Origin: Caldicellulosiruptor acetigenus
GTDB lineage: Bacteria; Bacillota; Thermoanaerobacteria; Caldicellulosiruptorales; Caldicellulosiruptoraceae
Assembly: GCF_026914305.1 (NCBI RefSeq)
Contig: NZ_CP113866.1
Span: 666,183 to 690,182, forward strand
Direction: 5' to 3'
DNA length: 24,000 nt
Positions 4,068 through 20,058 of this stretch are shown here, in pieces (position 1 is the first letter of the stretch; the number at the start of each line of letters is the position of its first letter). Under the pieces are notes generated by a model. The model was not told the origin of the DNA. It worked only from the letters and a program-made list of their open reading frames with translations, and did no database searches. Both the position numbers and the translations under genes were made by a program.

Positions 4068-4103
4068 ATAAAGTGGAAATTTAAGAAAAAGGAGGGAAAA
4101 GGT

Positions 4104-4382
4104 TTGAACAACAATCAAAATCAGCAGCAAGCTCAAGCTACTCAAACAGTGGAAAGAGTTAGCTCGAGACAGAAAAAGAAAAAGAGAGTTTGTTCATTCT
4201 GTGTTGAGAGAATATATGAGATAGATTACAAGGATGTGAACAGGCTCAAGAAATTCCTCACAGAAAGAGGCAAAATAATGCCAAGAAGAACAACTGGCAA
4301 CTGCGCAAGACATCAAAGACAGCTAACACGAGCTATCAAGCGCGCAAGAATCTTGGCGCTCTTGCCGTTTATAGTTGAATAA
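4104..4382 (+). CDS. rpsR: 30S ribosomal protein S18 (with N/Q-rich N-terminal extension)
   Basis: The core [60 protein letters not shown] is typical S18. The TTG start at 4104 lies 7 nt after AGGAGGG. Confidence 0.9.
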
Positions 4383-4418
4383 GATCCTTTTATAAAATGG
4401 CTCTTTGTCAAGAGTTGG

Positions 4419-4452
4419 GGTGGGTGTTCTGAATGCCCACCTTTCAATTTTA
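4419..4452 (+). terminator. Probable terminator after rpsR
   Basis: GGTGGG (4419-4424) pairs with CCCACC (4436-4441) around an 11-nt loop and is followed by TTTCAATTTTATT. The stem is short and the T-tract is interrupted. Confidence 0.5.
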
Positions 4453-4571
4453 TTGAGTATGTATTTAATTACAACAATAGCAATTATAACTATTTGATTA
4501 CAAAAATTCATCAACACCTTCTATCCCCTATTAAAAAGGGGAACTCTTAAATATTTGCTTCTCCAATATTC

Positions 4572-4940
4572 TTAATGTGTACAACTATACAGTATCCTCT
4601 TCCTAAACCTCTCGAAATTCCTAAATCCATATGCTTTCCTCTTTAATACCTTTATCTTGTTGTTAAATCCTTCTGTCAAACTATTTGTATATGGTACCTC
4701 AAATGATTCCACTATTTCTGAAAACCAATTCCTAAATACCTGCACACACCTTTGGAATTCTTCTACATTACTTGATTCTGCCATCTCTATCCATTTCTTG
4801 AGCTTCTCTTTTGCTTCATCAGATGTCTTACTTTCTAATACTTTGTTAAATTCCTCTTTCAACCTGTGAGCTATCCTTAATTCCGGTGCATATAAAAACA
4901 TTACTTCCAATTCTTCTCTCTGCTGAGCTTTAAGTTTCTC
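4572..4940 (-). pseudogene. ISL3-family transposase, C-terminal fragment only
   Basis: The minus-strand translation is EKLKAQQREELEVMFLYAPELRIAHRLKEEF...SFEVPYTNSLTEGFNNKIKVLKRKAYGFRNFERFRKRILYSC. The TN(S/G)xxEGxNNKIKxxKRxxYGFRNFxxFRxRIL block is the hallmark ISL3 C-terminus. The reading frame runs open up to nt 4940, where the left end of the IS256-family element begins, so the N-terminal ~3/4 is missing. Confidence 0.8.
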
Positions 4941-6250
4941 GGGAGTTAAAATAAAATTGTGTCCACTGTATAATTAGCATTGAAATAATCAACAAAGGGG
5001 GTTCACGATTATGGAGAAAAAAGAAATTTTTGAGACTGCTAAAAATATGGCTATAGAACAAGTGTTAAATATGTATTGTTCCAAGGACGACCCCACTCGT
5101 CCAGCTCTAAAACAACTTTTAGAAAACTTACTTTAATGCATCATGCTCTCAGAAAGATCAGTTTATCTTGCAAAAAACCAAAATGACAAAGGCAATGGCT
5201 TTTATGAGAGAAAACTTGCAACTTCTGTTGGCAACCTTGAGCTCTCCGTTCCTCGCACACGCTCAGCTTCTTTTAGACCTTCCATCCTCCCTGAGCCATA
5301 CAAAAGAGTCGACAGCTCTTATACCAACCTCCTTATGTTCTTGGTTGCCAACGGCTATTCTGAAAGTTCTTTAATCCAAACTCTTAAAAGCATGAATTTG
5401 CCTTATTCTGAAGAGGAAATTACAAAAATCAAAAACGACCTCAAAAATGAACTTCAACTCTTTAAAGAAAAAGAACTTCGATGGCTGTGCTCTTGCCCTC
5501 ATTATTGACGGCTATCACTGCGAAATTAAAGATAACTCCAAAGTTAAACAAGCTACCTGTTATATTGTACTTGGCATTGATTTAGAGGGCAAAAAAGACA
5601 TCTTTGAGCTCTACACTTTCTTCGGCAAAGAAAACAAAGCCGATTGGATGAAAGTGTTCGATGATTTAATTACAAGAGGACTCAAAAAAGTCTTAATAGT
5701 TGTAAGCGATGATTTCCCTGGAATCATTGACGCTGTTAAACTCGCTTACCCCTATGCTGATCATCAGCTGTGTTTTGTTCACCTTCAGCGTAACGTCAAA
5801 AAGCATATGGCAAAAGAGGATGCATCTGGATTTAACAAAGAATTAGATAAAATAAGAGTTTCCTCTTCTGATTTTGACGAAGCTGTTTCAAAGTTCAAAC
5901 TCCTTTGTAATCAGTATTCCTCAAAATATCCCCGTTTTATAAAGGGAATTTATGAAAAAGCGGAGTTTTATCTTGCACATATGAAGTATCCAGAAGATTT
6001 AAGAAAGCATATCTATACTACCAATGCAGTAGAAAGTGTTAACAGTATAATTGAAAAAATAAGAATAAACTCAGGGGGTTATTTTCAGTCTGTAGAAGTT
6101 TTAGAAATAAACATCTATTTACAAAGAGAAAACTTGCGTCGGGGCAAGTGGAAAAACGGAGTACCTATTCTTAAAAATGTAGTTACAATATATTGCAGCT
6201 TTACAATAGGGTCTGTAAATAATTTTGTGTATTTAAATTAAACCAACCTT
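4941..6250 (+). mobile_element. IS256-family insertion sequence, copy 1 (decayed)
   Basis: The left end (C)GGGAGTTAAAATAAAATTGTGTCCACTGTATAATTAG is identical to nt 7101-7138. The length is ~1.3 kb, as expected for IS256-family elements. The right boundary is uncertain (+/- 30 nt) because the last ~70 nt are rearranged relative to copy 2. Confidence 0.65.
5011..6241 (+). pseudogene. IS256-family (mutator-type) transposase, copy 1, disrupted
   Basis: ATG 5011 gives MEKKEIFETAKNMAIEQVLNMYCSKDDPTRPALKQLLENLL, followed by an in-frame TAA at 5134-5136. The same frame resumes (CIMLSERSVYLAKNQNDKGNGFYERKLATSVGNLELSVPRTRSASFRPSILPEPYKR...), and a +1 shift near 5470-5480 leads into the 264-aa ORF. That ORF carries the DDE-domain region (ALIIDGYHCEIKD...LIVVSDDFPGIIDAVKLAYPYADHQLCFVHLQRN...YTTNAVESVNSIIEK). 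Confidence 0.85.
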
Positions 6251-6391
6251 CTTGGTAAGAAATCATTCAAGGATAAGCTTGTCTACCTTCTATTTTTTAG
6301 TATTACCATTTTAAAAATTTTTATGCATAAATTTTTAAAATCCTGGACAAAATTTAATACTGGGTTATAATACTCTGTTTTTTATTTGTTG

Positions 6392-6423
6392 TTTTAAACT
6401 GCTTCCATGGAAGCAGTTTAAAA
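6392..6423. repeat. Perfect 32-nt palindrome
   Basis: TTTTAAACTGCTTCCATGGAAGCAGTTTAAAA is its own reverse complement. It lies 20 nt beyond the stop (6444-6446, minus strand) of the second IS256-family transposase relic. Confidence 0.9.
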
Positions 6424-6443
6424 TGCGAACTGGTAATCGCTAT

Positions 6444-7101
6444 CTACTTTATATACTCTCTCAAACGCTCAGGATACATTATCAAAAGCTGATTTAATAT
6501 TATATCCCAATTTCTGTACCTCTGTGTCCACTTTCTTACAACATTTTTTGTTGCAAGATAAAGCATCTTCTCTAATGCTATATCATTTGGAAACACTGAT
6601 TTTGTCTTTGTCACTTTCCTAAACTGTCTGTGAATTCCTTCTATGATGTTTGTGGTATAAATTATCTTCCTTATTCTGCGGGGGAAACTTAAAAAACGAT
6701 GTTAGTAGCTCCCAGTTGTTTTCCCAGCTTCTGAACGCATAAGGATACTGTTTCCCACACTTTTCTCTTACCTGATAAAAATTCTCCAGCGCTTCTTCTT
6801 CATTAGTTGCCTGATACACTTTCTTAAAATCCTTTGAAAATTCTTTTATATGCTTGTATGAAACATACTTGAATTAATTTCTTAGTTGATGAATAATACA
6901 CCTTTGAACATCGCTTTTAGGGAACACTGCTTCTATTGCTTCCTTTAAACCTGTCAAGCCGTCAACACAAAACAGTAGTACCTCTTCTACTCCTCTTGTT
7001 TTTAAGTCATTTAAAACACCCAACCAAAACTTGGAGCTTTCACTCTCTCCAATCCATATCCCTAAAACATCCTTATATCCTTCAATGTTAATACCTAAAA
7101 C
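6444..7101 (-). pseudogene. Second, distinct IS256-family transposase: C-terminal half only, with nonsense and frameshift lesions
   Basis: The minus-strand translation is VLGINIEGYKDVLGIWIGESESSKFWLGVLNDLKTRGVEEVLLFCVDGLTGLKEAIEAVFPKSDVQRCIIHQLRN, then a stop (TAA at 6874-6876), then FKYVSYKHIKEFSKDFKKVYQATNEEEALENFYQVREKCGKQYPYAFRSWENNWELLTSFFKFP. After a 1-nt shift at the G5/C5 run (6680-6684) it continues RIRKIIYTTNIIEGIHRQFRKVTKTKSVFPNDIALEKMLYLATKNVVRKWTQRYRNWDIILNQLLIMYPERLREYIK. The N-terminal half is cut off exactly at the left end of IS copy 2. Confidence 0.85.
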
Positions 7102-8415
7102 GGGAGTTAAAATAAAATTGTGTCCACTGTATAATTAGTATTGAAATAATCATCAAAGGGGGTCACTGAGAATGAATAAAAACGAAATTTACGAAACTGC
7201 TAAAAACATGGCTGTAGAGCAAGTATTAAATATGTATTGCTCCAAAGATGACCCTAACCGCACAGCTCTAAAGCAACTGAAAGTAAAACTTGCTCGATTG
7301 CTTTATGTTATCGGAAAGATCAGTGTACCTTGCTAAAAATGACAATGACAAAGGCAATGGTTTTTATTGAAGTAAAACTTGCAACACCTGCCTAACGTCT
7401 CGAAATCTCTGTCCCTCGCACACGTACTGGTAATTTCCGACCTTCTATCCTCCCTGACCGCTACAAAAGAGTTGATAGTTCGTACACCGACCTTCTTATG
7501 TCGCAAGTATGTCAATGGTTATTCTTGAGCATTCCCTTGTTCAAACTTTGAAAAACTTAAATCTTCCTTATTCCGAAAACGAAATCCTAAAAATCAAAGA
7601 AGACCTCAAAAATGAACTTCAATTATTCAAACAAAGAGAATTGCCTACAAGTGCTTTTGCTCTTATCATCGACGGTTATTCAGAAGTGAAGTTAAGGACA
7701 ATTCTAAAGTTAAACAAGCTACTTGCTATGCCAGCCTTGGTATCGACTTAGAAGGTAAAAAAGACATTTTCGGTGTCTACACTTTCTTCGGCAAAGAAAA
7801 CAAGGCTGATTGGATGAAAGTTTTTGACGACTTAATTATAAGAGGTCTTAAAGAAGTTTTAATTGTTATAAGCGATGACTTTCCTGGTATTATAGATGCT
7901 GTCAAACTTTCTTACCCTCTTGCTGACCTTTAGCTTGCTTTTGTCCACCTCCAACGTAATGTCAGAAAACATATGACAAAAGATGATGCTTCAGCTTTTA
8001 ACAAGAGTTTGGACAAAATCAAAATCTCTTCTTCTGATTTTGATGAAGCTGTATTGAAATTTAAAGAACTTTGTGATGAATACTTTGCAAAATATCCTCG
8101 ATTTATTAAAGCAATATCAGAAAAAGCAGAGTTTTATCTTGCCCATATGAAATACCCCGAGGAATTAAGAAAGCATATTCTTATCACAAACGCCGTTGAA
8201 AGTGTAAACAGCATGATTGAAAAGATTAGAGTAAATTCAGGTGGATACTTTCAGTCTGTTGAAGTCTTAGAAATTAATATTTACTTACAGCGAGAGAACT
8301 TACGCCGTACAAAATGGAAAAATGGAGTTCCCAGTATTAGAAAATGCATTGATAACATAACCCAACTTTACAACTTACGTTATAAATTGGAAATACAAAA
8401 TTCTTGACAAGTCTC
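7102..8415 (+). mobile_element. IS256-family insertion sequence, copy 2 (heavily decayed)
   Basis: It has the same left end as copy 1. The reverse complement of the right end (GAGACTTGTCAAGAATTTTGTATTTCCAATTTATAA) aligns imperfectly with the left end (GGGAGTTAAAATAAAATTGTGTCCACTGTATAA), which gives a ~1.31-kb element. Confidence 0.65.
7172..8407 (+). pseudogene. IS256-family transposase, copy 2, multiple frameshifts and stops
   Basis: It is homologous to copy 1 throughout, at roughly 80% nt identity by eye. Lesions include frameshifts near 7300, 7370-7500 and 7690 and an in-frame TAG at 7931-7933 (copy 1 reads HQ there). The longest intact pieces are 80 aa and 144 aa. Confidence 0.85.
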
Positions 8416-8514: not shown

Positions 8515-9528
8515 GTGGTTAAGATTCCAGCTACAATAAAAGATATAGCAAGGTATACAGGACTTTCAATAGCAACTATATCAAAGTATCTCAATGGTGG
8601 TAATGTGTTAGAAAAAAATAGGATTCTTATTGAAGAGGCAATAAAAGCGTTGGATTTTGAAGTGAATGAAATTGCAAGAGGACTCAGAACTAACAAGACA
8701 ATGACAATTGGAGTTTTGATTCCTGTTTTTGAAGTTTTCTTTAATACAATTGTATCTTCGTTAGAAAATGTCTTGCTTGAAACTGGTTATAGTGTTGTTG
8801 TATGTGATTACAGAGATGATAAAAAGTTAGAAAAGGAAAGGTTAGATTTTCTTTATAAAAAAAGAGTTGATGCATTAGTGGTTGTTCCCACATATTTGAA
8901 AGGAAGCGATATTAAAAAGATTATAAAAAGGGACATTCCAATTGTAGCAGTGGACAGACCAATTGAAGACTTTGAGTGTGATACAATACTTGTGAACAAT
9001 TTTGAAGTTTCATATCAAGCAGTTGAAAAGTTGATTTTAATGGGGCACAAAAAAATTGGAATAATATGTGGGCCGCAGAATATCTATACTGCTCAAGAAA
9101 GGTTGAATGGCTATGTGCAAGCTCATACTAATTTTAACATACCTCTAAATGAAGAATATATAAAGTTTGGAGAATTTCATAATATGGAATCAGGTTATAA
9201 AAAAATGATTGAATTACTTGAAATCCAAAATCCTCCTTCTGCTGTTTTTGTTACAAATTATGAGATGACTCTTGGTGCTATTATTGCTATAAATGAAAAA
9301 GATATAAAAGTCCCTGATGAGCTGTCAGTTATAGGCTTTGATAATTTAGAAATGGCAAGGATAGTAAAGCCATCATTATCTCTTGTGGTCCAGCCAATGG
9401 AAGAGATAGGAGAGTCTGTTGCAAGATTGCTATTGAAGAGATTAAAAGGGGATAAAAGTGATTTTCCTTTGCAAAAAAAGTTGAATGCACAAGTTTTGAT
9501 AAAGAATTCAATCAAAAAAATAGGCTAA
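8515..9528 (+). CDS. LacI-family transcriptional regulator
   Basis: 337 aa with a GTG start after GAGAGGGG. N-terminal HTH ATIKDIARYTGLSIATISKYLNGG...EEAIKALDFEVNEIARGLRT, followed by a periplasmic-binding-protein-like sugar-binding core (IGVLIP...VDRP...IGFDN). Confidence 0.9.
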   Translation: MVKIPATIKDIARYTGLSIATISKYLNGGNVLEKNRILIEEAIKALDFEVNEIARGLRTNKTMTIGVLIPVFEVFFNTIVSSLENVLLETGYSVVVCDYRDDKKLEKERLDFLYKKRVDALVVVPTYLKGSDIKKIIKRDIPIVAVDRPIEDFECDTILVNNFEVSYQAVEKLILMGHKKIGIICGPQNIYTAQERLNGYVQAHTNFNIPLNEEYIKFGEFHNMESGYKKMIELLEIQNPPSAVFVTNYEMTLGAIIAINEKDIKVPDELSVIGFDNLEMARIVKPSLSLVVQPMEEIGESVARLLLKRLKGDKSDFPLQKKLNAQVLIKNSIKKIG

Positions 9529-9590: not shown

Positions 9591-9620
9591 TTGACAGATA
9601 TATTTGTTTAATGTTATTCT
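9591..9620 (+). promoter_or_regulatory. Promoter of the five-gene sugar operon
   Basis: Consensus -35 TTGACA (9591-9596), an 18-nt spacer, then an extended -10 TGtTATTCT (9612-9620). Confidence 0.55.
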
Positions 9621-9628
9621 AATATAAA

Positions 9629-9642
9629 GCTAAACGTTTATC
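9629..9642. promoter_or_regulatory. LacI-type operator O1 (gcTAAACGTTTAtc)
   Basis: 10-bp perfect palindrome TAAACGTTTA centred at 9635/9636, immediately downstream of the predicted -10/TSS. The CG-centred AT-rich palindrome is typical of LacI/CcpA-family sites. Confidence 0.6.
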
Positions 9643-9660
9643 GTTTTGTATTTATTAAAA

Positions 9661-9674
9661 GTAAAACGTTTAGT
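9661..9674. promoter_or_regulatory. LacI-type operator O2 (gtAAAACGTTTAgt)
   Basis: Same AAACGTTT core, centred at 9667/9668. That is 32 bp (about 3 helical turns) from O1 and 36 nt upstream of the aldolase start. Confidence 0.55.
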
Positions 9675-9709
9675 TATTGATTATTCATTAAAAAAGGAAG
9701 TGAAAAGAA

Positions 9710-10546
9710 GTGGCTATTATCTCTTTGAAAGATGCTTTTGACTATGGTTTTGTAAAAACAGCAATTTGTTCTTTCAACTTTGTAAATGTCGAACAATTGT
9801 ATGGAATTGTAGCTGCTGCTGATGAGCTTCAAACTCCTGTTGTTTTAATGATTTCTCAAAAAACTGCTTTAAAATATGGACTTGAGGTAATGTTCAACTT
9901 AGCAAAATCAAAAGCTGAAAAGCTGCATACTCCGTTTGTCATTCATTTAGACCATGCAAAGAATATTGAGCTTGTTGAAAAAGCAATTAATTTAGGTTTT
10001 TCTTCAGTAATGTTTGATGGTTCATCACTCTCTTTTGATGAAAATATTAAGAAAACTTACGAAGTTGTAAAAAAAGCTCACAGATATGGGATTACAGTTG
10101 AGGGCGAAATAAATGCTATATATGGGAAGGAAGAAGATGGCCCCACAAGTGCTATTGTATACACAAAAGTAGAGGATGCCAAGAAGTTTTCAGAAGAGAC
10201 TGAGGTTGATTTTTTAGCGGTTAGTGTTGGGACAAAGCATGGACTTTATGAGGGAACGCCCTCCTTAAGGTATGATCTTATCAATGAAATTTCTAATTCA
10301 ATTAAATCAAAACTTGTTATGCATGGTTGCAGCGGGCTTACAGCTGAACAGTTAAGGAAGTCTATTCAAAGTGGAATTAAAAAGTTGAATTTTGGCACAG
10401 AAGTAATGCTAACACAGATAAATGCAATAAAAAAATCATTAGAAAATTTATCTAAACCAGATATAAGGCCAATTATGGACAGTTCAATTGATGAGATAAA
10501 GGCATATGTAAAGAACACAATTAATAGTATTAGTATTTCACAATAA
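9710..10546 (+). CDS. Class II ketose-bisphosphate aldolase (FBP/tagatose-1,6-bisphosphate aldolase family, GatY/KbaY/FbaA-like)
   Basis: 278 aa with a GTG start after AAGGAAGTGA. Family motifs present: FNFVNVEQL, HLDHAKN (Zn His), MFDGS, VEGEI, VSVGTKHGLY, VMHGCSG. The length matches the ~280-aa class IIB aldolases. Confidence 0.8.
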   Translation: MAIISLKDAFDYGFVKTAICSFNFVNVEQLYGIVAAADELQTPVVLMISQKTALKYGLEVMFNLAKSKAEKLHTPFVIHLDHAKNIELVEKAINLGFSSVMFDGSSLSFDENIKKTYEVVKKAHRYGITVEGEINAIYGKEEDGPTSAIVYTKVEDAKKFSEETEVDFLAVSVGTKHGLYEGTPSLRYDLINEISNSIKSKLVMHGCSGLTAEQLRKSIQSGIKKLNFGTEVMLTQINAIKKSLENLSKPDIRPIMDSSIDEIKAYVKNTINSISISQ

Positions 10547-10588
10547 AATTTATGAAAAAGTCAACAAAAAGGAGCGAATGTTTTAAAA

Positions 10589-11632
10589 ATGAAAGCGGCA
10601 GTTTTACACGCAAAAGGTGATATCAGATATGAAGAGGTTGAAGTTCCTAAAATAACTGAGGATGAGGTTCTTGTAAAAGTGAGGGCAAGTGGCATATGTG
10701 GGTCTGACATTCCAAGAGTATTGGGTGATGCGGCACATTTTTATCCTATCATATTAGGACATGAATTTTCTGGTGAAATTGTAGAGGTTGGCAAAAACGT
10801 TAAAAATCTTAAAATTGGCGACAGAGTGGTGGGTGCTCCGTTATTGCCATGTTTTAAGTGCAGTGATTGTCAAAAGGGTTGGTATTCGCAATGCAAAAAC
10901 TACAGTTTTATTGGATCAAGAAGGCAAGGGAGTTTTGCCGAATACATAGCGATTCCTGCAAGAAATGCTATAAAATTTGATGAAAGTATCCCTTTTGAAC
11001 AGGCTGTCTTTTTTGAACCATCAACTGTAGCTTTACATGGACTTAGGTGTGTTGATTTTAAAGGTGGCGAAGATGTTTTAGTTTTAGGTGCTGGAACAAT
11101 TGGGATTTTTACGTTACAGTGGGCAAGAATAATGGGAGCAAGACGCATCTGTGTTGTTGATATCAAAGATGAAAGATTAAAACTTGCAGAAGAGTTTGGA
11201 GCAGATTTTGTGGTAAATGCAACTGAAGAAAAGTTTACAGAAAAGATAAGTGAACTCACAAAAGGCAGAGGTTTTGGATATGTATTTGAAACAGCAGGTA
11301 GTACTGAGACAATAAAATTCTCTTTCGAATTTGTTTCAAATAAAGGTTGTGTTTGTCTTATTGGTACACCTACAAAGGATGTTGTTTTCTCACCTCATCT
11401 ATTTGAAAAAATTAATAGAAAAGAGTTTCATCTTACAGGTTCTTGGATGTCATATAGTGCCCCTTTTCCAGGCATTGAATGGGAGTTGACCTCACAGTAT
11501 TTTTCAGATAAACGCTTGAAGTTCAGCAATAAGTTGATATACAAAACCTTTCATCTAAAAGATATCAAAGAAGCATTTGAGTTATTTAAAAGTCCGGAGA
11601 ATGTGAAAGGCAAAGTAATTATTTTAAGTTAA
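10589..11632 (+). CDS. Zn-dependent polyol(-phosphate) dehydrogenase, galactitol-1-phosphate 5-dehydrogenase (GatD)-like
   Basis: 347 aa. Long motif matches to E. coli GatD as I remember it: ASGICGSDIPRVLGDAAHFYPIILGHEFSG; LLPCFKCSDCQKGWYSQCKNYSFIGSRRQGSFAEY; GAGTIG; GSWMSYSAPFPGIEWE. Confidence 0.75.
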   Translation: MKAAVLHAKGDIRYEEVEVPKITEDEVLVKVRASGICGSDIPRVLGDAAHFYPIILGHEFSGEIVEVGKNVKNLKIGDRVVGAPLLPCFKCSDCQKGWYSQCKNYSFIGSRRQGSFAEYIAIPARNAIKFDESIPFEQAVFFEPSTVALHGLRCVDFKGGEDVLVLGAGTIGIFTLQWARIMGARRICVVDIKDERLKLAEEFGADFVVNATEEKFTEKISELTKGRGFGYVFETAGSTETIKFSFEFVSNKGCVCLIGTPTKDVVFSPHLFEKINRKEFHLTGSWMSYSAPFPGIEWELTSQYFSDKRLKFSNKLIYKTFHLKDIKEAFELFKSPENVKGKVIILS

Positions 11633-11666
11633 TATATTCAAAAAATTATATAAGGAGGAATATAAA

Positions 11667-12836
11667 ATGATCAAAAGTTTTAATTACTATCAGCCCACCA
11701 GAATAATATTTGGAGTGGGCAGACGAAAAGAGCTTGGTATTTGGGCGAAACGTTTTGGGAAAAAGGTTTTAGTTGTTGTTGATCCGAATGTAGAAAAGTT
11801 TTTGTCTCAGCAGTGTCAAGAGATGTTAGATAGCCTTCATTCCGAATGTATTGAAACCATTGTATTTGATCATGTTATTCCAAATCCCACGCTTGACTCA
11901 ATCCAAGAAGGTGCAGAGGTTGCAAAAAAAGAGAAAGTTGATTTTGTAATAGGCATTGGTGGGGGAAGTGCAATTGACACAGCAAAAGCAATAGCAGTTG
12001 CAGCAACCCATGAAGGAACTGCATGGGATTATCTTTATTTTAAAAAAGAACCTACAGAAAAAACACTGCCTATAATTGGAGTTCCAACAACAGCAGGAAC
12101 AGGCACGCAAACATCAAGAGTCTCTGTGTTGACAAACACAGAAGAAAAATGCAAATCAGCAATTGCAAGTGACAATATAATATGCAAGGTTGCAATTGTA
12201 GATCCAGAGCTTACTTTAACTGTTCCTCCTGCTGTCACTGCATCAACAGGGTTTGATGTGTTTACACATTGCTTTGAGTCATACATAAATGTAAATAATC
12301 AGCCATATGTAGATATGTTGGCACTTGAGGCAATTGAAATTGTTATTAAATATTTGAAAAAAGCTTATGACAATCCAGGTGACCTTGTGGCAAGAACAAA
12401 GATGGCCTGGGCAGATACTTTAGCAGGATGTTGTTTGGCAAATGTTGGGACGACAATTCCACATGCCTTAGGTCAGGCAATTGGCGGTCATTTCCCGCAT
12501 GTAAGTCATGGTCAGAGCTTGGCAGTGGTTTACCCTGCATTTTTAGATTATACAGTGGACTGGGCTATAGAAAGGTTTGCAAAAGTGGCAAGAATTTTTA
12601 ATCCTGAGCTTGAGAAAGTATCTGACAAAGAAGCAGCCTATGCTTTGAAACAGGAAATTGTTTCATTTTTAAAATCAATCAACCTGTATTACACAATGGA
12701 GGATTTTGGAATAAAGAAAGAAGACGTTAAGGATTTGGTAAAACATGCAATAGAATTTCCTGATAACAGGGTAAATCCAAGAATTCCTGACGAAAAGGAT
12801 CTTGAAGAGCTTTATTTAAAATCGTTTAGAGACTAA
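11667..12836 (+). CDS. Iron-containing alcohol dehydrogenase family protein
   Basis: 389 aa, with RBS AAGGAGG. It has the Fe-ADH nucleotide-binding motif IGIGGGSAIDTAKAIA, GVPTTAGTGTQ and His-rich metal-site regions (FDVFTHCFESY, HALGQAIGGHFPHVSHG). Confidence 0.8.
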   Translation: MIKSFNYYQPTRIIFGVGRRKELGIWAKRFGKKVLVVVDPNVEKFLSQQCQEMLDSLHSECIETIVFDHVIPNPTLDSIQEGAEVAKKEKVDFVIGIGGGSAIDTAKAIAVAATHEGTAWDYLYFKKEPTEKTLPIIGVPTTAGTGTQTSRVSVLTNTEEKCKSAIASDNIICKVAIVDPELTLTVPPAVTASTGFDVFTHCFESYINVNNQPYVDMLALEAIEIVIKYLKKAYDNPGDLVARTKMAWADTLAGCCLANVGTTIPHALGQAIGGHFPHVSHGQSLAVVYPAFLDYTVDWAIERFAKVARIFNPELEKVSDKEAAYALKQEIVSFLKSINLYYTMEDFGIKKEDVKDLVKHAIEFPDNRVNPRIPDEKDLEELYLKSFRD

Positions 12837-12852
12837 AAAGGAGTAAGTGGGT

Positions 12853-14358
12853 ATGAGAGAATTGCTTTTGGGTATAGATATTGGAACCTCTGCCTGCAAA
12901 CTAAGCGTATTTGATAGAGAAGGGAATGTCATTTTTGATACTTCAAAACCATATAATATTTACTTTCCTCAAGAAGGGTTTGTAGAACAAGATCCCAATG
13001 AGTGGTGGGATGCTGTTGTCAACGCAATTAATGAGATGTTTGCAAAAAGTAATATCAGACCAGATGAAATAAAATCAATAGGAATTGCAGGGCAGAGTTG
13101 GTCCTGCATTCCTGTTGACAAAAATGGGAATGTCTTATCTAATACACCAATTTGGATGGACACTCGTTCTTCTTATATTTTGGAAAAAATTCGAGAAAAA
13201 ATTGATGAGAAATACATTTTTGATGTGAGCAAAAATCCTCTCAATCCCACATATTCAACACTCAAGATTTTATGGTTCAAAGAAAACAAACCTGATGTTT
13301 ATAAAAATACCTATAAGTTTTTACAGAGCAACAGCTTTATTGTTTTTAAACTTACAGATTCTTTTTCTCAGGACTTATCGCAAGGGTATGGATATCATTT
13401 CTTCAATATGGAAAAAGGCTGCTATGATGAAAAAGCTGCTGATATGTTTAGCATTGACCTTGAACTTTTACCACAAATCTATCCATGTCACCAGGTAGTA
13501 GGGTATGTATCAAAAGAAGCTGCAGAGATAACAGGTTTAAAGGAAGGCACACCTGTTGTTGCAGGAGGGTTAGATGCAGCTTGCTGCACCTTAGGTGCTG
13601 GTGTTGTTGAAGTGGGGCAAACGCAAGAACAAGGTGGGCAAGCAGGTGGCATGAGTATATGTCTTGACAGACCAGTTTCAAATCCAAAGCTTATCTTATC
13701 ATACCATGTTGTACCGGGAAGATGGCTTTTGCAAGGTGGAACTGTTGGTGGTGGAAGCTTAAGATGGTTTTATGAGCAGTTTGGTTATGAAGAAACAGAA
13801 ACTGCGAAAAGAGAAAATAAAAGTCCATTTGCTATCATGGATGAAAAAGCAGAACGGATTCCTTGTGGAGCAGAAGGCCTTATATTCTTGCCATATATGG
13901 CAGGGGAGAGGTCTCCTATCTGGGACAGAAACGCAAAGGGTATTTTCTATGGAGTGAGTTATAAAAAAACGAAGGCTCATTTTGTAAGGTCCATTATGGA
14001 AGGGTGTGCATATGCGCTGAGACATAATTTAGAAGTTGCAGAAGAGAGTGGCGTTAAAATTAATAGGCTTTATGCTGTTGGAGGAGCAGCAAATAGCAAA
14101 CTGTGGTGTCAGATAAAATCTGATGTAACTGGCAAAATCATTGAGGTGCCAATATCGGATAATGCAACAACACTCGGTGCAGCAGTATTAGCAGGATACG
14201 GTATAGGAATATTTAAAGATATCTTTAAGACTATAAAAGAAATAGTGAAGTCAAAGGCAATTTATTCACCATCCTTTGATAATTATAAGCTTTATTCGAG
14301 ATATTATGAGCAATATTTAGAAATCTATGAAAGATTAAAAGAAGTGATGAATAGATAA
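12853..14358 (+). CDS. FGGY-family carbohydrate kinase (xylulokinase-like)
   Basis: Motifs GIDIGTSACK, EQDPNEWW, IAGQ, PIWMDTRS, VGGGSLRW, GERSPIWD and VGGAANSKLW. The ORF track starts at GTG 12847, but ATG 12853 is 9 nt from GGAG (12840-12843), so I prefer it. Confidence 0.85.
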   Translation: MRELLLGIDIGTSACKLSVFDREGNVIFDTSKPYNIYFPQEGFVEQDPNEWWDAVVNAINEMFAKSNIRPDEIKSIGIAGQSWSCIPVDKNGNVLSNTPIWMDTRSSYILEKIREKIDEKYIFDVSKNPLNPTYSTLKILWFKENKPDVYKNTYKFLQSNSFIVFKLTDSFSQDLSQGYGYHFFNMEKGCYDEKAADMFSIDLELLPQIYPCHQVVGYVSKEAAEITGLKEGTPVVAGGLDAACCTLGAGVVEVGQTQEQGGQAGGMSICLDRPVSNPKLILSYHVVPGRWLLQGGTVGGGSLRWFYEQFGYEETETAKRENKSPFAIMDEKAERIPCGAEGLIFLPYMAGERSPIWDRNAKGIFYGVSYKKTKAHFVRSIMEGCAYALRHNLEVAEESGVKINRLYAVGGAANSKLWCQIKSDVTGKIIEVPISDNATTLGAAVLAGYGIGIFKDIFKTIKEIVKSKAIYSPSFDNYKLYSRYYEQYLEIYERLKEVMNR

Positions 14359-14376
14359 AAAAGAGGCGAATTTTAG

Positions 14377-15666
14377 ATGAGTCCTCAAAATCTATTGTTA
14401 GATTTATTTAAAAATAGGGAAAAAGGATTTAAGGGTATTATTTCAGTTTGTTCTTCAAATGAAATAGTCTTAGAAGCAGTTTTGAAAAGAATGAAGGATA
14501 CAAATCTACCAATTATTATTGAGTCTACCGCAAACCAGGTAAATCAATTTGGTGGATATTCTGGGCTTACACCATCTCAGTTTAAAAAAAAGGTTATCAA
14601 AATTGCTCAAAAAGTTGATTTTCCACCTGACAGAATAATTCTTGGTGGGGACCATCTTGGACCATTTGTGTGGCGTGACCAGGAACCAGAAATTGCAATG
14701 GAGTATGCTAAGCAAATGATAAAAGAATACATAAAAGCAGGTTTTACCAAAATTCACATTGACACAAGTATGCCTTTAAAAGGTGAAAACAGCATAGATG
14801 ATGAAATAATTGCTAAAAGAACTGCTGTGCTCTGCAGGATTGCGGAGGAGTGTTTTGAGAAGATTTCTATAAACAATACTCATATTACAAGACCTGTTTA
14901 TGTGATAGGAGCTGATGTACCACCTCCCGGCGGAGAGTCTTCTATCTGTCAAACAATTACTACTAAAGAGGAATTAGAAAGAAGTTTAGAATATTTCAAA
15001 GAAGCATTTAAAAAGGAAGGAATTGAACATATATTCGATTATGTAGTTGCCGTTGTTGCAAATTTTGGAGTCGAATTTGGGAGCGATGAAATTGTTGATT
15101 TTGATATGGAAAAAGTAAGGCCGCTAAAAGAGCTTTTGGGAAAGTACAATATAGTATTTGAAGGGCATTCTACAGATTATCAGACAAAGGAAAACTTAAA
15201 AAGAATGGTCGAATGTGGTATTGTAATTTTAAAGGTTGGTCCTGCTCTAACATTTGCGTTGCGTGAGGCATTAGTAGCCCTTAGTCATATTGAAGAAGAA
15301 ATTTATTGCAATGAAAAGGAGAAACTGTCAAGGTTTAGAGAAGTTTTATTGAATACTATGCTAACATGCAAAGATCACTGGAGTAAATATTTTGATGAAA
15401 ATGATAAATTAATTAAGTTAAAGCTTCTATATAGCTATCTTGACAGATGGAGATACTATTTTGAAAACGAGAGTGTGAAAAGTGCTGTTTATTCTCTTAT
15501 TGGAAATTTAGAGAATGTTAAAATTCCACCTTGGCTTATTAGTCAGTATTTTCCCTATCAGTACCAAAAGATGAGAAAAAAAGATTTAAAAAATGGTGCG
15601 ACCGAGCTAATATTAGATAAAATAGGGGAAGTCATAGACAGTTATGTTTATGCTGTAAAAAAATAA
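14377..15666 (+). CDS. GatZ/KbaZ/AgaZ-family protein (tagatose-bisphosphate aldolase accessory subunit / tagatose-6-phosphate 4-epimerase family)
   Basis: 429 aa. [17 protein letters not shown]...[24 protein letters not shown]...[11 protein letters not shown]...[10 protein letters not shown] parallels E. coli GatZ (GICSVCSAHP...[23 protein letters not shown]...[11 protein letters not shown]...FSKIHLDASM) as I recall it. Confidence 0.85.
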   Translation: [429 protein letters not shown]

Positions 15667-15830: not shown

Positions 15831-15859
15831 TTGACTTTTAAAAAATGATTGATTATAAT
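15831..15859 (+). promoter_or_regulatory. Near-consensus sigma-A promoter upstream of the fucI relic
   Basis: TTGACT (15831-15836), an exactly 17-nt spacer, then TATAAT (15854-15859). Confidence 0.65.
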
Positions 15860-15896: not shown

Positions 15897-15910
15897 ATAA
15901 AACGTTTCGT
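15897..15910. promoter_or_regulatory. LacI-type operator O3 (atAAAACGTTTCgt)
   Basis: Same AAACGTTT core as O1/O2, centred at 15903/15904, about 38 nt downstream of the predicted TSS. Confidence 0.5.
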
Positions 15911-16054: not shown

Positions 16055-16264
16055 TTGCAAAATAAAAATGATAAATACACAATTGACATTGGCGAAAAAC
16101 GTTTTGTTGAAGACTATCCCAAAGTTGGAATTAGTCCTACTATAGATGGCAGATATGGTGGTGTAAGAGAATCATTAGAGGAACAAACATGAAAATTAGC
16201 ACAGTCTGTGGCAGAGGTTATAGAAAACAATGTTTATTTACCAATCATGCTTAACAAGGTATGA
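16055..16264 (+). pseudogene. fucI: L-fucose isomerase, N-terminal relic (about 45-69 of ~590 codons)
   Basis: TTG 16055 lies 9 nt after GAAAGAGGG. The translation [45 protein letters not shown] is followed by TGA (16190-16192). The same frame continues KLAQSVAEVIENNVYLPIMLNKV to TGA at 16262-16264. [23 protein letters not shown] matches the FucI N-terminus (E. coli: [23 protein letters not shown]). This ORF is too short to appear in the supplied track. Confidence 0.75.
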
Positions 16265-16331
16265 CTATTAATAAAAACAGAATTAATCTATTTTCATGCT
16301 AACAATATTGCAAATGAAAGGAGATATAATT

Positions 16332-17282
16332 ATGGAATCTTCAATCTGGAATAGAAGAAAAATTAATTGGAAAAATATATGGGCTCAACGTTATATTATG
16401 ATATTAGTATTACCCGTAGTTTTATGGATGATAATTTTTAATTATTTACCAATGCTAGGTTTGATTATAGCTTTTAAAGAATATGATCCTTTTTTAGGCC
16501 CTTTAAAAGGATTTTTAGAAAGTAAGTGGGTAGGAATAGATAATTTTAAAGAAATGTTTACAGACAAATATTTTTGGCAAGCATTGTGGAATACAATTTA
16601 TTATAGTGTATTAAATTTAATAGTTGGTTTTCCTTTTGCAATTTTATTTGCTATTTTATTAAATGAAATACCAAATATGTGGTATAAAAGATTTGTGCAG
16701 ACGGTTAGTTATTTGCCATACTTTATTTCTTGGGTTTTTGTTATTGGTTACATTTATATTATCTTGGCGGATAATGGTATTGTAAATGATGTGTTGCTTA
16801 AACTTCATATAATTGATAAACCGATACCATTTCTTGTAACACCTGACTTTGTTCCACCTATAGTAGTGTTGAGTAATTTATGGAAGTCATTTGGTTGGAA
16901 TGCAATAATATTTATTGCAGCTATTACAAATATAGATCCAACATTGTTTGAAGCTGCAATAGTTGATGGGGCAGGTCGATTTGCCAGAATAAGGTATGTT
17001 ACTTTACCATCAATAAAACCTACCATTATTATATTACTAATATTTAATATTGCAGGAATAATGACTAATTATGGGATGTTTGAACAAATGTATCTTTTAT
17101 CGAATGGAGCAATTCAAGATGCTACTGAGATTATTGACACTTATACATTTAAGATAGGTATTGTTTTATCTAGATTTTCATATGCTACAGCAGTAGGGTT
17201 GTTTAGATCAGTGGCTGCAGTTGTTTTATTAGTTTGGGCTAATTCAATATCTAAAAAGCTTACGGGCGAAAGTTTATATTAA
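16332..17282 (+). CDS. Carbohydrate ABC transporter permease (CUT1, LplB/YteP-type)
   Basis: Multi-TM protein with the binding-protein-dependent permease EAA-loop region (EAAIVDGAGRFARIRYVTLPSIKP). The track ORF starts at 16296, but ATG 16332 lies 8 nt after AAAGGAG (16317-16323). Confidence 0.85.
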   Translation: MESSIWNRRKINWKNIWAQRYIMILVLPVVLWMIIFNYLPMLGLIIAFKEYDPFLGPLKGFLESKWVGIDNFKEMFTDKYFWQALWNTIYYSVLNLIVGFPFAILFAILLNEIPNMWYKRFVQTVSYLPYFISWVFVIGYIYIILADNGIVNDVLLKLHIIDKPIPFLVTPDFVPPIVVLSNLWKSFGWNAIIFIAAITNIDPTLFEAAIVDGAGRFARIRYVTLPSIKPTIIILLIFNIAGIMTNYGMFEQMYLLSNGAIQDATEIIDTYTFKIGIVLSRFSYATAVGLFRSVAAVVLLVWANSISKKLTGESLY

Positions 17283-17306
17283 TAGATGCAGTAAGGAGGA
17301 GTAAAA

Positions 17307-18185
17307 GTGAGAATTAGAAGGAAAAGTACTGGCGATATTATTTTCGATGTTTTAAATAATTTGTTTATGTTTATAGTAGTAATAATTACATTATATCCGT
17401 TTTATTACATTATAATTTCTTCCTTTAATGATCCTATAGATTTATTAAAAGGCCCTGTATATCTATGGCCAAGAAAATTTTCAGTGGTTAATTACATATA
17501 TATTTTTCAAGAAAAAGCTATTTTAAATGCGGCGTTTATAACAGTTGCAAGAACAATAATAGGAAGCGCAGCTGCTGTTTTATTTACTGCTGCATTTGCA
17601 TATGGTATTTCAAGGAAATGGTTAATAGGAAGGAATTTATTTATAAAAATGGCGATAATAACAATGTACTTCAGTGGAGGATTAATCCCTACATATTTAC
17701 TTATAACGCGTTTTTTAAATTTAGCAGGCAACTTTCTTGTTTTTATTATTCCTAATTTGTTCAATGCTTATAATGCGTTTATTATGTATTCATTTTTTAA
17801 AGGAATACCTGTCGAAATAGAAGAGTCTGCCAAAATAGATGGGGCAAATGATATTATAATCTTTTTTAAATTGATTCTTCCTTTGAGTTTACCTATACTT
17901 GCTACAATTGCTTTGTTTAATGGTGTATGGCATTGGAATTCTTGGTTTGATGCGTTGTTATATGGAGAAGGAAAATTAGAAACATTACCATTATATTTAG
18001 TTAGGGCTATTCAGTCAGCTACTGCAAGTGCAGAAGCAGCGAGATTTGTTTCAACAACAGGTATAACATCCACGTCTATAAGACTGACTACTATGGTAGT
18101 TACTACATTTCCTATAACGATAGTGTATCCATTTCTTCAGAAGTATTTTGTTAAAGGCATAATGATAGGTGCTTTGAAGGATTAG
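17307..18185 (+). CDS. Carbohydrate ABC transporter permease (CUT1, LplC/MalG-type)
   Basis: 292 aa with a GTG start after AAGGAGGAG. It has six predicted hydrophobic segments and the EAA loop EESAKIDGANDIIIFFKLILPLSLP. Confidence 0.85.
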   Translation: MRIRRKSTGDIIFDVLNNLFMFIVVIITLYPFYYIIISSFNDPIDLLKGPVYLWPRKFSVVNYIYIFQEKAILNAAFITVARTIIGSAAAVLFTAAFAYGISRKWLIGRNLFIKMAIITMYFSGGLIPTYLLITRFLNLAGNFLVFIIPNLFNAYNAFIMYSFFKGIPVEIEESAKIDGANDIIIFFKLILPLSLPILATIALFNGVWHWNSWFDALLYGEGKLETLPLYLVRAIQSATASAEAARFVSTTGITSTSIRLTTMVVTTFPITIVYPFLQKYFVKGIMIGALKD

Positions 18186-18244
18186 ATTTACAGGTTCATT
18201 TTTTGATTGATAGTTTTGTTTGAGGAGGTGATTATAAATATGTG

Positions 18245-18291
18245 GCTAAACGATTCGTCTTAATTTGGTGGTTTATAATAAAACGCTTAAT
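18245..18291. promoter_or_regulatory. Pair of degenerate LacI-type operator-like sites upstream of the SBP gene
   Basis: gCTAAACGATTCgt (18245-18258) and atAAAACGCTTAat (18278-18291). Each is one core mismatch away from half-site combinations seen in O1-O3, and the centres are 33 bp apart, mirroring the 32-bp O1-O2 spacing. Confidence 0.35.
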
Positions 18292-18372
18292 GTTTGTTTT
18301 AGCGGAGTAGGAAAAGATTAAATAACATAATCTAAAAATTAACAATTTAAAGAAAAAGAAGGAGGAGGAAAA

Positions 18373-20058
18373 ATGAATAAAAGGTATTTCAAAGTAATTT
18401 CAATACTTATAGTTTTCGCTTTAATAGTTTCTTTAGTCTCCATTGGATATGTTTATAAAAATGAAGTTAAAGCAGCTTCATCTAGTAAAACTGCGACACA
18501 GGGTGCAAAAGTAAAGTATTCTTGGCAAAAAGATACATCGCCTTTTAAATTTGATTTGTATTTTTTCGGCGCATGGGGTTCATTTTATCGTTGGAATGGT
18601 GCTCTCGTAGAAAAGTGGATTACTGAGGCAACGGGAGTTACTCCAAATATTATTGTGCCTACAGGGGATGAAAAACAGTATCTTAACGTTATGATTGCTT
18701 CTAATAATTTACCTGATGCTATGGTACTTGAATGGTATGCTCCAGAAACAAAAAGACTTATTAAGGCAGGAAAAATATATTCGGTGAACGAATTGTGTCA
18801 AAAATATGCACCAGAATTTTGGGACATGATACCAAAAGAAGTAAAAGAATATCATAAATTTGATGACGGTAAGCTTTATTATATTCCATCATTTTTCACT
18901 ACCAAAGAAGAATACGAACAAGGTTTGGAAAAGCATAATGCAAGGCCATTGTTTATTCAAAGAGGAATATATAAAGCTTTAGGAAATCCAAAAATTAATT
19001 CACCAGATGATTTGATTAATTTGTTAAGGACAATAAAGAAAAAATATCCTAATTTAAAACCATTTGCAATAGAACCTCCAATTGATGTAAATCAGTGGGG
19101 ACTTACGGGTAGCTTAACTTTAGCATTTTTTGCAGGGATTTTTGCACCAGAGACATATGGAAGAGACGTTTATCTTGATGCAAAAGGAAATATAAAATTT
19201 ATTTTTGAAAATCAGAATTTTATTGAGGCTGTAAGATTTTTGAATAAAATTTATAGGGAAGGTTTAATCACATCATATGAATTGATGATGAAACATGAGA
19301 ATTATCAAGATTTAGTAGAATCAGCCAAATATGCCGTTATAGCCCGATTCCCAATAGATATTTGGAAGCAACATAATCCAAAAATTCTAAAACTTACTAA
19401 AGATGAAGGTAAGACATATATGCCATTACCTTATTTTAAATATAAAGGCAAGAATCCTCAATTTGCGGGCGGTAGAGGAGCAGGTTGGGTTGGTTCTATG
19501 GTAACGAAAAACGCCAAGAATCCAGGAAGAATAATTAGATATTTTGAATATAGTTGGTCTGATGAAGGACAACTAACAAATCTATTTGGCAAAAAAGACG
19601 TTACGTATTATATTGATAAAAATGGAATGCCAAGATATAAACCAGAAGTTTTGAAAGAATTACAGGATAATCCAGCAAGCTTAGATACTAAGTATGGATT
19701 TGAAAGAAGATTATTAATGTGGAGATCAAAATGGGCAGGATGGCAGAGAATAGCAATGGCACCTAAAGAATATGAAGATTACTTAAGATCAGTTGCACGT
19801 TATGGTGTAGATATTTGGAATCTAGGTCTTGATAATCTTGACCCAGATCCAACTACTAAAGAAGGAGTTTCTTATGCGAAAATCAAAAATATATGGAACA
19901 AATATCTTGTACAGATGGTATTAGCTAAAGATGATAATACCTTTAAGAAGGCTTATGAAAGTGCATTGAAAGAAATGAAGAATGCAGGTTTAGAGCAGGT
20001 AAGAAAAGTTATGTATCAGAACCATTTGAAAGATTTGGCAAAGAAAAAAGGTATGTAA
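18373..20058 (+). CDS. Extracellular solute-binding protein, large LplA-type (oligosaccharide-binding)
   Basis: 561 aa, with RBS AAGGAGGAGG. It has an N-terminal hydrophobic anchor (KVISILIVFALIVSLVSIGYVY). The size and gene order (permease-permease-SBP) are those of LplABC-type CUT1 systems. There is no lipobox Cys. Confidence 0.8.
   Translation: MNKRYFKVISILIVFALIVSLVSIGYVYKNEVKAASSSKTATQGAKVKYSWQKDTSPFKFDLYFFGAWGSFYRWNGALVEKWITEATGVTPNIIVPTGDEKQYLNVMIASNNLPDAMVLEWYAPETKRLIKAGKIYSVNELCQKYAPEFWDMIPKEVKEYHKFDDGKLYYIPSFFTTKEEYEQGLEKHNARPLFIQRGIYKALGNPKINSPDDLINLLRTIKKKYPNLKPFAIEPPIDVNQWGLTGSLTLAFFAGIFAPETYGRDVYLDAKGNIKFIFENQNFIEAVRFLNKIYREGLITSYELMMKHENYQDLVESAKYAVIARFPIDIWKQHNPKILKLTKDEGKTYMPLPYFKYKGKNPQFAGGRGAGWVGSMVTKNAKNPGRIIRYFEYSWSDEGQLTNLFGKKDVTYYIDKNGMPRYKPEVLKELQDNPASLDTKYGFERRLLMWRSKWAGWQRIAMAPKEYEDYLRSVARYGVDIWNLGLDNLDPDPTTKEGVSYAKIKNIWNKYLVQMVLAKDDNTFKKAYESALKEMKNAGLEQVRKVMYQNHLKDLAKKKGM

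Follow-up and report, generated by a model that had tools for sequence, protein, structure and literature searches.

In bacteria, L-fucose is known to be degraded either by isomerase, kinase and aldolase (FucI, FucK and FucA) or by an oxidative, non-phosphorylative route, and L-galactose by way of L-galactonate. Both sugars cap plant xyloglucan, complex xylans and pectin. The gat and aga systems of Escherichia coli work with a phosphotransferase system (PTS; GatABC), GatD, PfkA and GatY/GatZ. Non-PTS routes for galactitol, D-altritol and D-tagatose were reportedly described by Wichelecki in 2015; such routes use SDR-type polyol dehydrogenases. GatZ and KbaZ have been reported as C4 epimerases of fructose 6-phosphate (F6P) and tagatose 6-phosphate (T6P) (PMC11907403). 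Here we compare with these systems an operon in a 24,000-nucleotide stretch of Caldicellulosiruptor acetigenus (assembly GCF_026914305.1, contig NZ_CP113866.1, positions 666,183 to 690,182), the whole of which is called the window below. Its five genes encode a class II aldolase, a GatD-like zinc-dependent dehydrogenase (Zn-ADH), an iron-dependent alcohol dehydrogenase (Fe-ADH), an FGGY kinase and a GatZ/KbaZ-family protein. With a probability of about one half, the operon is a lineage-specific form of a widespread module that would convert L-fucose-configured aldoses to an alditol, an alditol 1-phosphate and D-tagatose 6-phosphate, and further to F6P or trioses.

The operon is already flagged in print, with its chemistry unexplained. 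A supplement of Rodionov et al. 2021 lists 'KbaY, GatD, AdhB, Kinase, GatZ' as 'new fucose pathway enzymes' under the regulator FucR, records them for C. kronotskyensis, C. danielii and C. acetigenus alone, and names the downstream transporter FaxABC (PMC8579813). In the same work C. acetigenus is scored as having fucosidases but neither FucI nor the RhaB-type kinase, and the main text proposes no mechanism (PMC8579813). Beyond this label, we found in the literature searched no alditol route for L-fucose or L-galactose, no fucitol kinase and no report of this gene combination. The pathway had been called undescribed in the original prediction, which was made from the DNA letters alone. That description stands for the chemistry, for which no publication was found, but not for the genes, which were labelled in 2021.

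Operon layout and FucR operators

The five open reading frames (ORFs) lie on the forward strand and are separated by gaps of 42, 34, 10-16 and 18 nucleotides, the third gap depending on whether the kinase starts at 12847 or at the ATG at 12853. They follow the gene of a LacI-family regulator that is 93% identical to the regulator at the same position in L001, a close relative from metagenomic DNA. Both AAACGTTT cores of the tandem candidate operators lie just 3' of the -10 element of the operon promoter (Table 1). The AAACGTTT core is present in five copies in the window (9632, 9664, 11748-11755, 15900-15907 and 16097) against 0.45 expected, and five copies were reached in none of 100 shuffles. 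Similar placement is seen elsewhere. Paired boxes stand 5' of the aldolase gene in L001 and in a further relative, L005, and a box is found 5' of the LacI and FGGY genes in about 20 Clostridial loci, where a LacI protein 54-59% identical to FucR of the window precedes an FGGY-ZnADH-GatZ module with the same AAACGTTT box. The copy at 11748-11755 lies inside the Fe-ADH gene; the Fe-ADH gene of L001 also contains one (7373), and this may be chance.

In the published regulon, tandem FucR sites were described at fucI, the fucI site has the AAACGTTT core, and C. acetigenus is included in the fucR alignment (PMC8579813, Fig. S1). Because two boxes lie past the -10 element of the operon, one lies behind a second promoter and the published fucI site shares the core, we assign the operon to the predicted FucR regulon: a LacI-type FucR is present, and the palindromic AAACGTTT sites are placed for repression. 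In the proposed reading the five genes would form one operon repressed by FucR. The ORF calls, the promoter match of 10 of 12 positions and the enrichment of the core agree with the original prediction of five close-packed, co-directional genes behind a good promoter and two operators beside a LacI regulator.

Table 1. Coordinates of the operon, its control elements and the downstream features in the window.
Feature	Positions	Strand	Basis or detail
LacI-family repressor, FucR orthologue	8515-9528	+	Pfam LacI and Peripla_BP domains
Sigma-70-type promoter of the five-gene operon, TTGACA-18-TATTCT with TG extension	9591-9620	+	Consensus matches only (10/12)
Two tandem candidate FucR operators	9628-9675	+	AAACGTTT cores 9632-9639 and 9664-9671, 32 bp apart
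Class II (FBA/KbaY-type) ketose-bisphosphate aldolase	9710-10546	+	PF01116, 262 bits
GatD-subfamily Zn-dependent dehydrogenase, proposed alditol-1-phosphate dehydrogenase	10589-11632	+	NCBIfam GatD is best model
Fe-ADH, proposed alditol-forming reductase (alternative: acetol/lactaldehyde reductase)	11667-12836	+	PF00465 and PF25137
XylB-like FGGY kinase, proposed alditol (or 1-deoxy-/D-tagatose) kinase	12847-14358, likely start ATG 12853	+	FGGY_N and FGGY_C
GatZ/KbaZ-family protein, remodelled metal and C1 pocket	14377-15666	+	PF08013, 496 bits vs. cut-off 26.7
Second promoter, TTGACT-17-TATAAT	15831-15859	+	11/12 consensus matches; FucR box at 15900-15907
fucI relic, about the first 59 codons only, stop-interrupted	16055-16243	+	tblastn
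CUT1-type ABC transporter, two permeases and a 561-aa binding protein	16296-20058	+	BPD_transp_1 twice
GH31 alpha-xylosidase-like enzyme	20127-22406	+	Pfam and NCBIfam
GH39 enzyme	22436-23884	+	Pfam and NCBIfam

The encoded proteins and their conservation

Families were assigned with Pfam and NCBIfam models and their curated cut-offs. The assignments agree with the five product families named in the original prediction, and none of the five proteins reaches an equivalog cut-off. The aldolase passes only the broad ketose-bisphosphate aldolase subfamily model TIGR00167 (217.5 bits vs. 215.6). It falls below the cut-offs of the FBA, GatY and KbaY models, of which the FBA models score slightly higher, and its best structural matches are the KbaY-like 8q57 and 8q58. 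Because the HLDH, GTKHG, HGCSG and NFGTE motifs are retained, its zinc site and its site for dihydroxyacetone phosphate (DHAP) look intact. The MHGCSG segment had been noted as a deviation from the family; we dropped this point, as H-G-x-S-G is kept and x varies among relatives (HGASG, HGATG). For the Zn-ADH, GatD is the top model with 334.7 bits, under the cut-off of 550; the E. coli GatD structure (4a2c) scores 279 bits and the next structure 167.

The Fe-ADH scores 242 bits with the FucO model TIGR02638, against a cut-off of 523. The ErcA, GbsB and SarD models outscore FucO, none reaches its cut-off, and the nearest structures are short-chain alcohol and aldehyde enzymes. These scores and the neighbouring genes argue against a FucO orthologue and leave room for a small-aldehyde role. 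The kinase has XylB as its best model (358 bits vs. the cut-off of 380) and scores only 123 bits against 471 with the FucK model TIGR02628.

The GatZ-like protein is 100% identical to a C. acetigenus entry at NCBI. A catalytic set of Cys20, Glu44, Asp87-His88, Glu171, His257 and Lys279 has been proposed for E. coli GatZ (PMC11907403). All of these are kept in the window except Glu171, which is replaced by Asp. Among the 120 best homologues, Asp occupies this position in the window and its nine next-closest homologues and Glu in the other 110. The same 10 of 120, and only these, have Asn-Phe in place of the neighbouring Gln-Pro together with a YSxLDRWRYY motif, and they are the clade that carries the Fe-ADH. 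An hhalign comparison (probability 47%) places Asn-Phe-Gly of the GatZ-like protein opposite Lys-His-Gly of the aldolase, which holds the second zinc-ligand His beside the C1 phosphate pocket. Proteins of this clade may recognize a different C1 end, for example a methyl group, or may have lost the epimerase activity. These clade-specific changes are the main basis of a more novel L-fucose reading, which is weighed below.

A scan of genomes with the single GatZ-like protein gave no relative, and its alignment-based repeat gave no Caldicellulosiruptor genome; close relatives were drawn from metagenome contigs and contigs of metagenome-assembled genomes (MAGs). In L001 the GatZ protein is 84% identical, and the five genes are found with the same transporter and glycoside hydrolases (GH) of families GH31, GH127 and GH95. 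L003, a Dictyoglomota MAG, has ZnADH-FeADH-FGGY-GatZ without an aldolase gene, followed directly by GH95, GH127 and an intact FucI gene. In L005 an intact FucI gene and a monosaccharide ABC transporter accompany the full set of five. FucI lies downstream in L003 and L005, and the transporter arrangement of the window is kept in L001 and L003. At the position where the window has its fucI relic, another relative, L093, contains a more decayed copy and L001 none.

The ratio of nonsynonymous to synonymous substitution rates (dN/dS) is 0.05-0.20 for all six genes, including comparisons with relatives that have only a decayed fucI, or none, at this position. These values indicate that the operon is maintained without an adjacent isomerase and rule out that it is decaying after the loss of fucI. 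No protein of the operon is as well conserved as the Fe-ADH (83-98% identity, dN/dS 0.05-0.08), and the aldolase has dN/dS of 0.13-0.17. Compared with L093, divergence is mosaic: the Zn-ADH protein is 100% identical (synonymous divergence, dS, of 0.014) and the kinase and GatZ genes have dS of 0.37-0.42, which suggests recombination inside the operon.

Related loci and a proposed alditol-phosphate route

A wider survey combined a scan of species-representative genomes, tblastn and clustering, and gave 33 non-redundant loci that were found via the GatZ-family protein. GatD-like Zn-ADH orthologues are present in the 33 loci, the FGGY kinase in 30 and the LacI regulator in 23, so that a LacI-FGGY-ZnADH-GatZ module recurs. 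Hosts include Ruminiclostridium cellobioparum, Anaerobacterium chartisolvens, Clostridium grantii, Acetivibrionales, Blautia and a spirochaete MAG, and one contig is binned as Bacteroides. Identities to the window proteins are 51-59% for FGGY, 54-64% for Zn-ADH, mostly 54-59% for LacI and 42-48% for GatZ. An aldo-keto reductase (AKR) is found in 22 of 33 loci; structurally, it matches AKR1-type aldehyde and aldose reductases best. FucU is found in 17 of 33 and passes the equivalog cut-off for L-fucose mutarotase (155 vs. 141 bits; 202 in the alphaproteobacterial locus L096). A PF01116 aldolase occurs in 9 of 33. Fe-ADH occurs in 4 of 33 loci, those of the window's clade only, and this clade has neither AKR nor FucU. 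Among the 33 loci the three core genes keep a conserved order and co-occur with a reductase, an AKR in 22 and an Fe-ADH in 4; loci of the L096 type are further cases. Clostridial and alphaproteobacterial versions mostly lack the aldolase and have a canonical GatZ.

Neighbours of the module include GH95, GH31, GH2 and GH43. GH95 shares the operon in L003 and L094 and lies next to it in L001 and L039. A Thr/His residue of GH95 was used as a marker of L-galactosidase versus L-fucosidase (Rogowski 2015). The module-linked GH95 enzymes have the Thr form, like the L-galactosidase, and so do 8zbv (deposited as an alpha-L-fucosidase), 7kmq and the uncharacterised 2rdy. Because the Thr form is also found in 8zbv, this residue does not separate L-galactose from L-fucose. 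An MFS transporter that follows FucU in six loci was considered as FucP and rejected, having no NCBIfam match. Beside the module, the Acetivibrionales MAG L088 carries FucI as well as a RhaB-like kinase, and the stretch read contains no FucA-family aldolase. In L088 (1-3768 and 12852-13868), as also in L049 and L071, there are several paralogues of URO-D/MtaA-like methyltransferases; those of L088 flank RhaM, FucI, the RhaB-like kinase and the module. Possible substrates for demethylation by these enzymes are O-methylated deoxy sugars, for example 2-O-methyl-fucose.

Outside its clade, the next homologues of the Fe-ADH are 57-63% identical and mostly alphaproteobacterial. Few homologues at 54-60% identity have readable surroundings, and most of these are in module loci. 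In Pleomorphomonas koreensis (L096) the gene order is DeoR, RhaB-like kinase, FucA, FucI, XylB-like FGGY, GatD-like ZnADH, Fe-ADH, ABC transporter, GatZ, FucU and LacI. Because the same enzyme families stand here beside a complete canonical set, this locus opposes a simple replacement of FucK and FucA. More distant homologues (46-51%), obtained in the metagenome scan, are very often in clusters of ROK, SSF symporter, PfkB kinase, Fe-ADH, Zn-ADH and GH95 (L151, L135, L157, L160, L161, L163 and about 20 further metagenome loci). These clusters also carry a protein with a Laminin_G_3 domain, their Zn-ADH is not GatD-like, and no isomerase or aldolase homologue turned up in them. Fe-ADH, Zn-ADH and a sugar kinase recur across the clusters, in several cases next to GH95, and the cluster may be another uncharacterised route for GH95 products.

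From the gene content, operators, conservation, purifying selection and neighbourhoods, we infer the substrates, the order of the kinase and dehydrogenase steps and the role of the Fe-ADH as follows. Aldoses of L-fucose configuration, released from plant glycans by GH95 and GH29, would enter glycolysis via a sugar alcohol and bypass FucK and FucA. L-Galactose (or L-fucose) would be reduced to galactitol (or L-fucitol). In Clostridia this step would be carried out by the AKR1-type aldose reductase, aided by the mutarotase FucU; in the window's clade the Fe-ADH would replace the AKR and act either directly or after FucI. The XylB-like kinase would phosphorylate the alditol at the former C1 of the L-sugar, and the GatD-like Zn-ADH would oxidise the far end to D-tagatose 6-phosphate, or to 1-deoxy-D-tagatose 6-phosphate if L-fucose were the substrate. 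The GatZ-family protein would then epimerise C4 to give F6P. Optionally, a phosphofructokinase encoded elsewhere and the KbaY-like aldolase would yield DHAP together with glyceraldehyde 3-phosphate (G3P). With L-galactose the route would close fully and the module would be self-sufficient, with known family chemistry at each step except the reduction of a hexose by Fe-ADH. With L-fucose, the final step would call for a cleavage to hydroxyacetone and G3P that has no precedent, and the aldolase is a poor candidate for it because its DHAP phosphate site is kept. The original prediction of an ATP-dependent, PTS-less path from polyol through polyol phosphate and tagatose 6-phosphate to F6P or triose phosphates is supported in outline by this comparative genomics. 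A true link to fucose-type sugars is shown by the FucR operator, the fucI relic and the presence of FucU, FucI and GH95 in related loci.

Several points weigh against the alditol-phosphate route. The GatD-like and XylB-like scores are under the curated cut-offs. Hexose reduction would be unusual for an Fe-ADH whose nearest structures are short-chain alcohol and aldehyde enzymes, and the closest homologue outside the clade (63%) is not in a module locus. Because its DHAP phosphate site is intact, the aldolase suits the tagatose-bisphosphate branch alone, and the locus encodes no phosphofructokinase. With Asp at the proposed Glu metal ligand, the GatZ-like protein may not be an epimerase. The alphaproteobacterial FGGY and Zn-ADH are only 31% and 40% identical to those of the window and may not be orthologues. 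L-Galactose is rare among sugars, and it was fucose that gave the regulon its name. Finally, FucI is usually present in the Fe-ADH clade (L003, L005 and L096), and the route could start from a ketose.

It is possible, though rather improbable, that the operon serves L-fucose itself by way of L-fucitol, L-fucitol 1-phosphate and 1-deoxy-D-tagatose 6-phosphate, ending in hydroxyacetone and G3P. Cleavage would then fall to the remodelled GatZ-like protein, either by itself or jointly with the aldolase, and the Fe-ADH would either make the alditol or reduce hydroxyacetone to 1,2-propanediol. E. coli XylB phosphorylates 1-deoxy-D-xylulose, which favours such a kinase step. The clade-specific Phe of GatZ, aligned by hhalign with the zinc-ligand His of the aldolase near the C1 pocket, points the same way, as does the fact that only this clade adds the aldolase together with a small-aldehyde-type Fe-ADH. 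However, we know of no enzyme that cleaves a 1-deoxy-ketohexose 6-phosphate, and in the E. coli gat system L-fucitol acts as a toxic analogue. The aldolase, with its DHAP phosphate site, should not accept a hydroxyacetone unit, and the mostly aldolase-free Clostridial and alphaproteobacterial versions with canonical GatZ would arrive at 1-deoxy-F6P, a dead end. The published FucR regulon does include the genes as 'new fucose pathway enzymes', in an organism with fucosidases but without FucI and the RhaB-type kinase (PMC8579813), and C. saccharolyticus makes 1,2-propanediol from fucose (PMC3637100). If Fe-ADH reduced L-fucose or L-fuculose and GatZ were now a retro-aldolase, the module of Caldicellulosiruptor and Dictyoglomota would be a third phosphorylative L-fucose pathway, a suggestion that we make tentatively and regard as doubtful. 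It would bypass FucI, FucK and FucA and add new activities to the Fe-ADH, FGGY and GatZ families. We consider it improbable that the locus is a plain PTS-less galactitol or D-tagatose operon of the gat type, merely co-regulated with fucoside and xyloside use and with the Fe-ADH as an accessory. That GatY-, GatD- and GatZ-like families occur together fits this idea, and non-PTS routes with ABC uptake and a T6P epimerase exist in Sinorhizobium, Agrobacterium and E. coli Nissle (PMC9720028). The idea leaves unexplained the shared FucR operator and the recurrent FucU, aldose reductase, FucI and GH95 of related loci; moreover, no polyol transporter is present at the locus, the linked transporter being of the CUT1 oligosaccharide type beside GH31 and GH39.

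The original prediction also offered a variant of the canonical fucose pathway, in which the FGGY protein is the fuculokinase, an FBA-II/GatZ-type aldolase replaces FucA on L-fuculose 1-phosphate and the Fe-ADH is FucO. The fucI relic of the window, the intact FucI genes downstream in relatives and the shared families of FucK and FucO are in its favour. It is nevertheless highly improbable. The FucK and FucO scores are far under their cut-offs, the GatD-like enzyme is left without a role, and L003 has no aldolase gene. L088 has a RhaB-like kinase and FucI beside the module, and Pleomorphomonas has a FucA-family aldolase as well as a RhaB-like kinase and FucI. Products made or cleaved by PF01116 aldolases have the 3S configuration, whereas L-fuculose 1-phosphate is 3R,4R. 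The replacement of FucA therefore fails both on gene content (L003 and Pleomorphomonas) and on stereochemistry. Barely plausible is a pentose or pentitol route, either from D-arabinose through D-arabitol and D-arabitol 1-phosphate to D-xylulose 5-phosphate or with the kinase as a xylulokinase paralogue. Zn-ADH-type D-arabitol-phosphate dehydrogenases exist, the kinase is just under the XylB cut-off, and D-arabinose, which has the configuration of L-fucose, is fermented by C. saccharolyticus (PMC3637100). This route gives no role to the GatZ-family protein (33 of 33 loci, which were found by it) or to the aldolase (9 of 33), and the GH95 linkage points to hexoses.

Flanking DNA and known systems

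Family assignments in the window cover all eleven ORFs between FucR and GH39, both included, as well as nine of the upstream ones. Among the scanned ORFs there is no PTS gene and no PfkB kinase, in agreement with the original prediction, and no match to PF00596 (FucA). An intact L-fucose isomerase is absent at the locus, where only FucI residues 9-59 are left (16091-16243, 88% identity to intact FucI by tblastn; a 45-aa ORF lies within the relic at 16055-16192). One AAACGTTT copy (16097) is within this relic, so the earlier claim that a fucI relic shares the operator motif was correct. The earlier statement that there is no transporter was not: the ABC system follows immediately downstream, behind the second promoter with its AAACGTTT box. 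Most of fucI has been deleted, and its promoter, FucR box and about 59 codons remain directly 5' of the ABC transporter, GH31 and GH39 genes, which the former promoter of fucI now appears to drive.

Upstream, between rpsR and the FucR gene, there are fragments of IS256/Mutator-family transposases (5143-6241 and 7973-8407), one of them apparently split over two overlapping ORFs, and GC skew is reversed over 4000-8000. In L001 the same regulator is preceded instead by GH106 and a GFO-type oxidoreductase. This difference indicates that the left border of the sugar island was rearranged. At 2012-3142, beside leuD/leuB-like genes and rpsF-ssb-rpsR, lies a fusion of an aldo-keto reductase with a 4Fe-4S dicluster domain; it is probably unrelated to the operon.

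If the alditol-phosphate route is correct, C. acetigenus would have a means of using fucosides although FucI and a fuculokinase are missing. A distinct subfamily of Fe-ADH would also gain a function, as would a GatZ clade that is of interest to biotechnology (C4 epimerases, tagatose production). The module is found in Clostridia, Dictyoglomota and a spirochaete MAG, with analogous gene sets in an alphaproteobacterium and many sediment metagenome contigs, and annotation pipelines name its genes xylulokinase, galactitol-1-phosphate dehydrogenase and tagatose-bisphosphate aldolase subunit.

As judged from comparative sequence data, the operon is best seen as a widespread variant of known alditol-phosphate and tagatose-6-phosphate chemistry. 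In the L-sorbose pathway of Klebsiella and Lactobacillus casei, L-sorbose-1-phosphate reductase and glucitol-6-phosphate dehydrogenase lead to F6P. There too, an L-sugar phosphate becomes an alditol phosphate that is re-oxidised at its other end to a D-ketose 6-phosphate, and the reductase is of the Zn-ADH family; unlike the route proposed here, that pathway has PTS entry, belongs to the glucitol rather than the galactitol series and has no epimerase step. The fungal oxidoreductive pathways for L-arabinose and D-galactose resemble the proposed route in that an isomerase gives way to an aldose reductase with polyol dehydrogenases and that L- is turned into D-configuration via alditols before phosphorylation. 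They differ in being eukaryotic, in oxidising the free polyol before the kinase step and in lacking GatD- and GatZ-type enzymes.

With the E. coli gat and aga systems the operon shares the GatD-, GatY/KbaY- and GatZ-like families and the proposed intermediates galactitol 1-phosphate and D-tagatose 6-phosphate. In place of the PTS, it has an ATP-dependent XylB-like FGGY kinase, with an extra Fe-ADH, and in place of GatR a LacI-type FucR in a fucoside/xyloside context. All three shared-family proteins are under the orthologue cut-offs, and the metal ligand of the GatZ-like protein is altered. The non-PTS routes for galactitol, D-altritol and D-tagatose in Agrobacterium tumefaciens, Sinorhizobium meliloti and E. 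coli Nissle have in common with it ABC uptake, a kinase instead of a PTS and a GatZ-family T6P 4-epimerase that leads to F6P (PMC9720028). Those routes start from a polyol and use a PfkB-type tagatose kinase on the free ketose (PMC9720028), whereas here the kinase is of the FGGY family, the dehydrogenase is GatD-like and the input would be an L-aldose. The canonical FucI-FucK-FucA-FucO pathway shares the sugars, the FGGY and Fe-ADH families and, in Caldicellulosiruptor, the same FucR regulon (PMC8579813). In the window, in contrast, the kinase and the alcohol dehydrogenase are not orthologues of FucK and FucO, and fucI is a relic. Canonical fucose genes coexist with the module in other genomes. 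The alditol-phosphate route, if true, would be a further solution to the use of these sugars, in which the near-symmetry of galactitol turns an L-sugar into a D-sugar phosphate.

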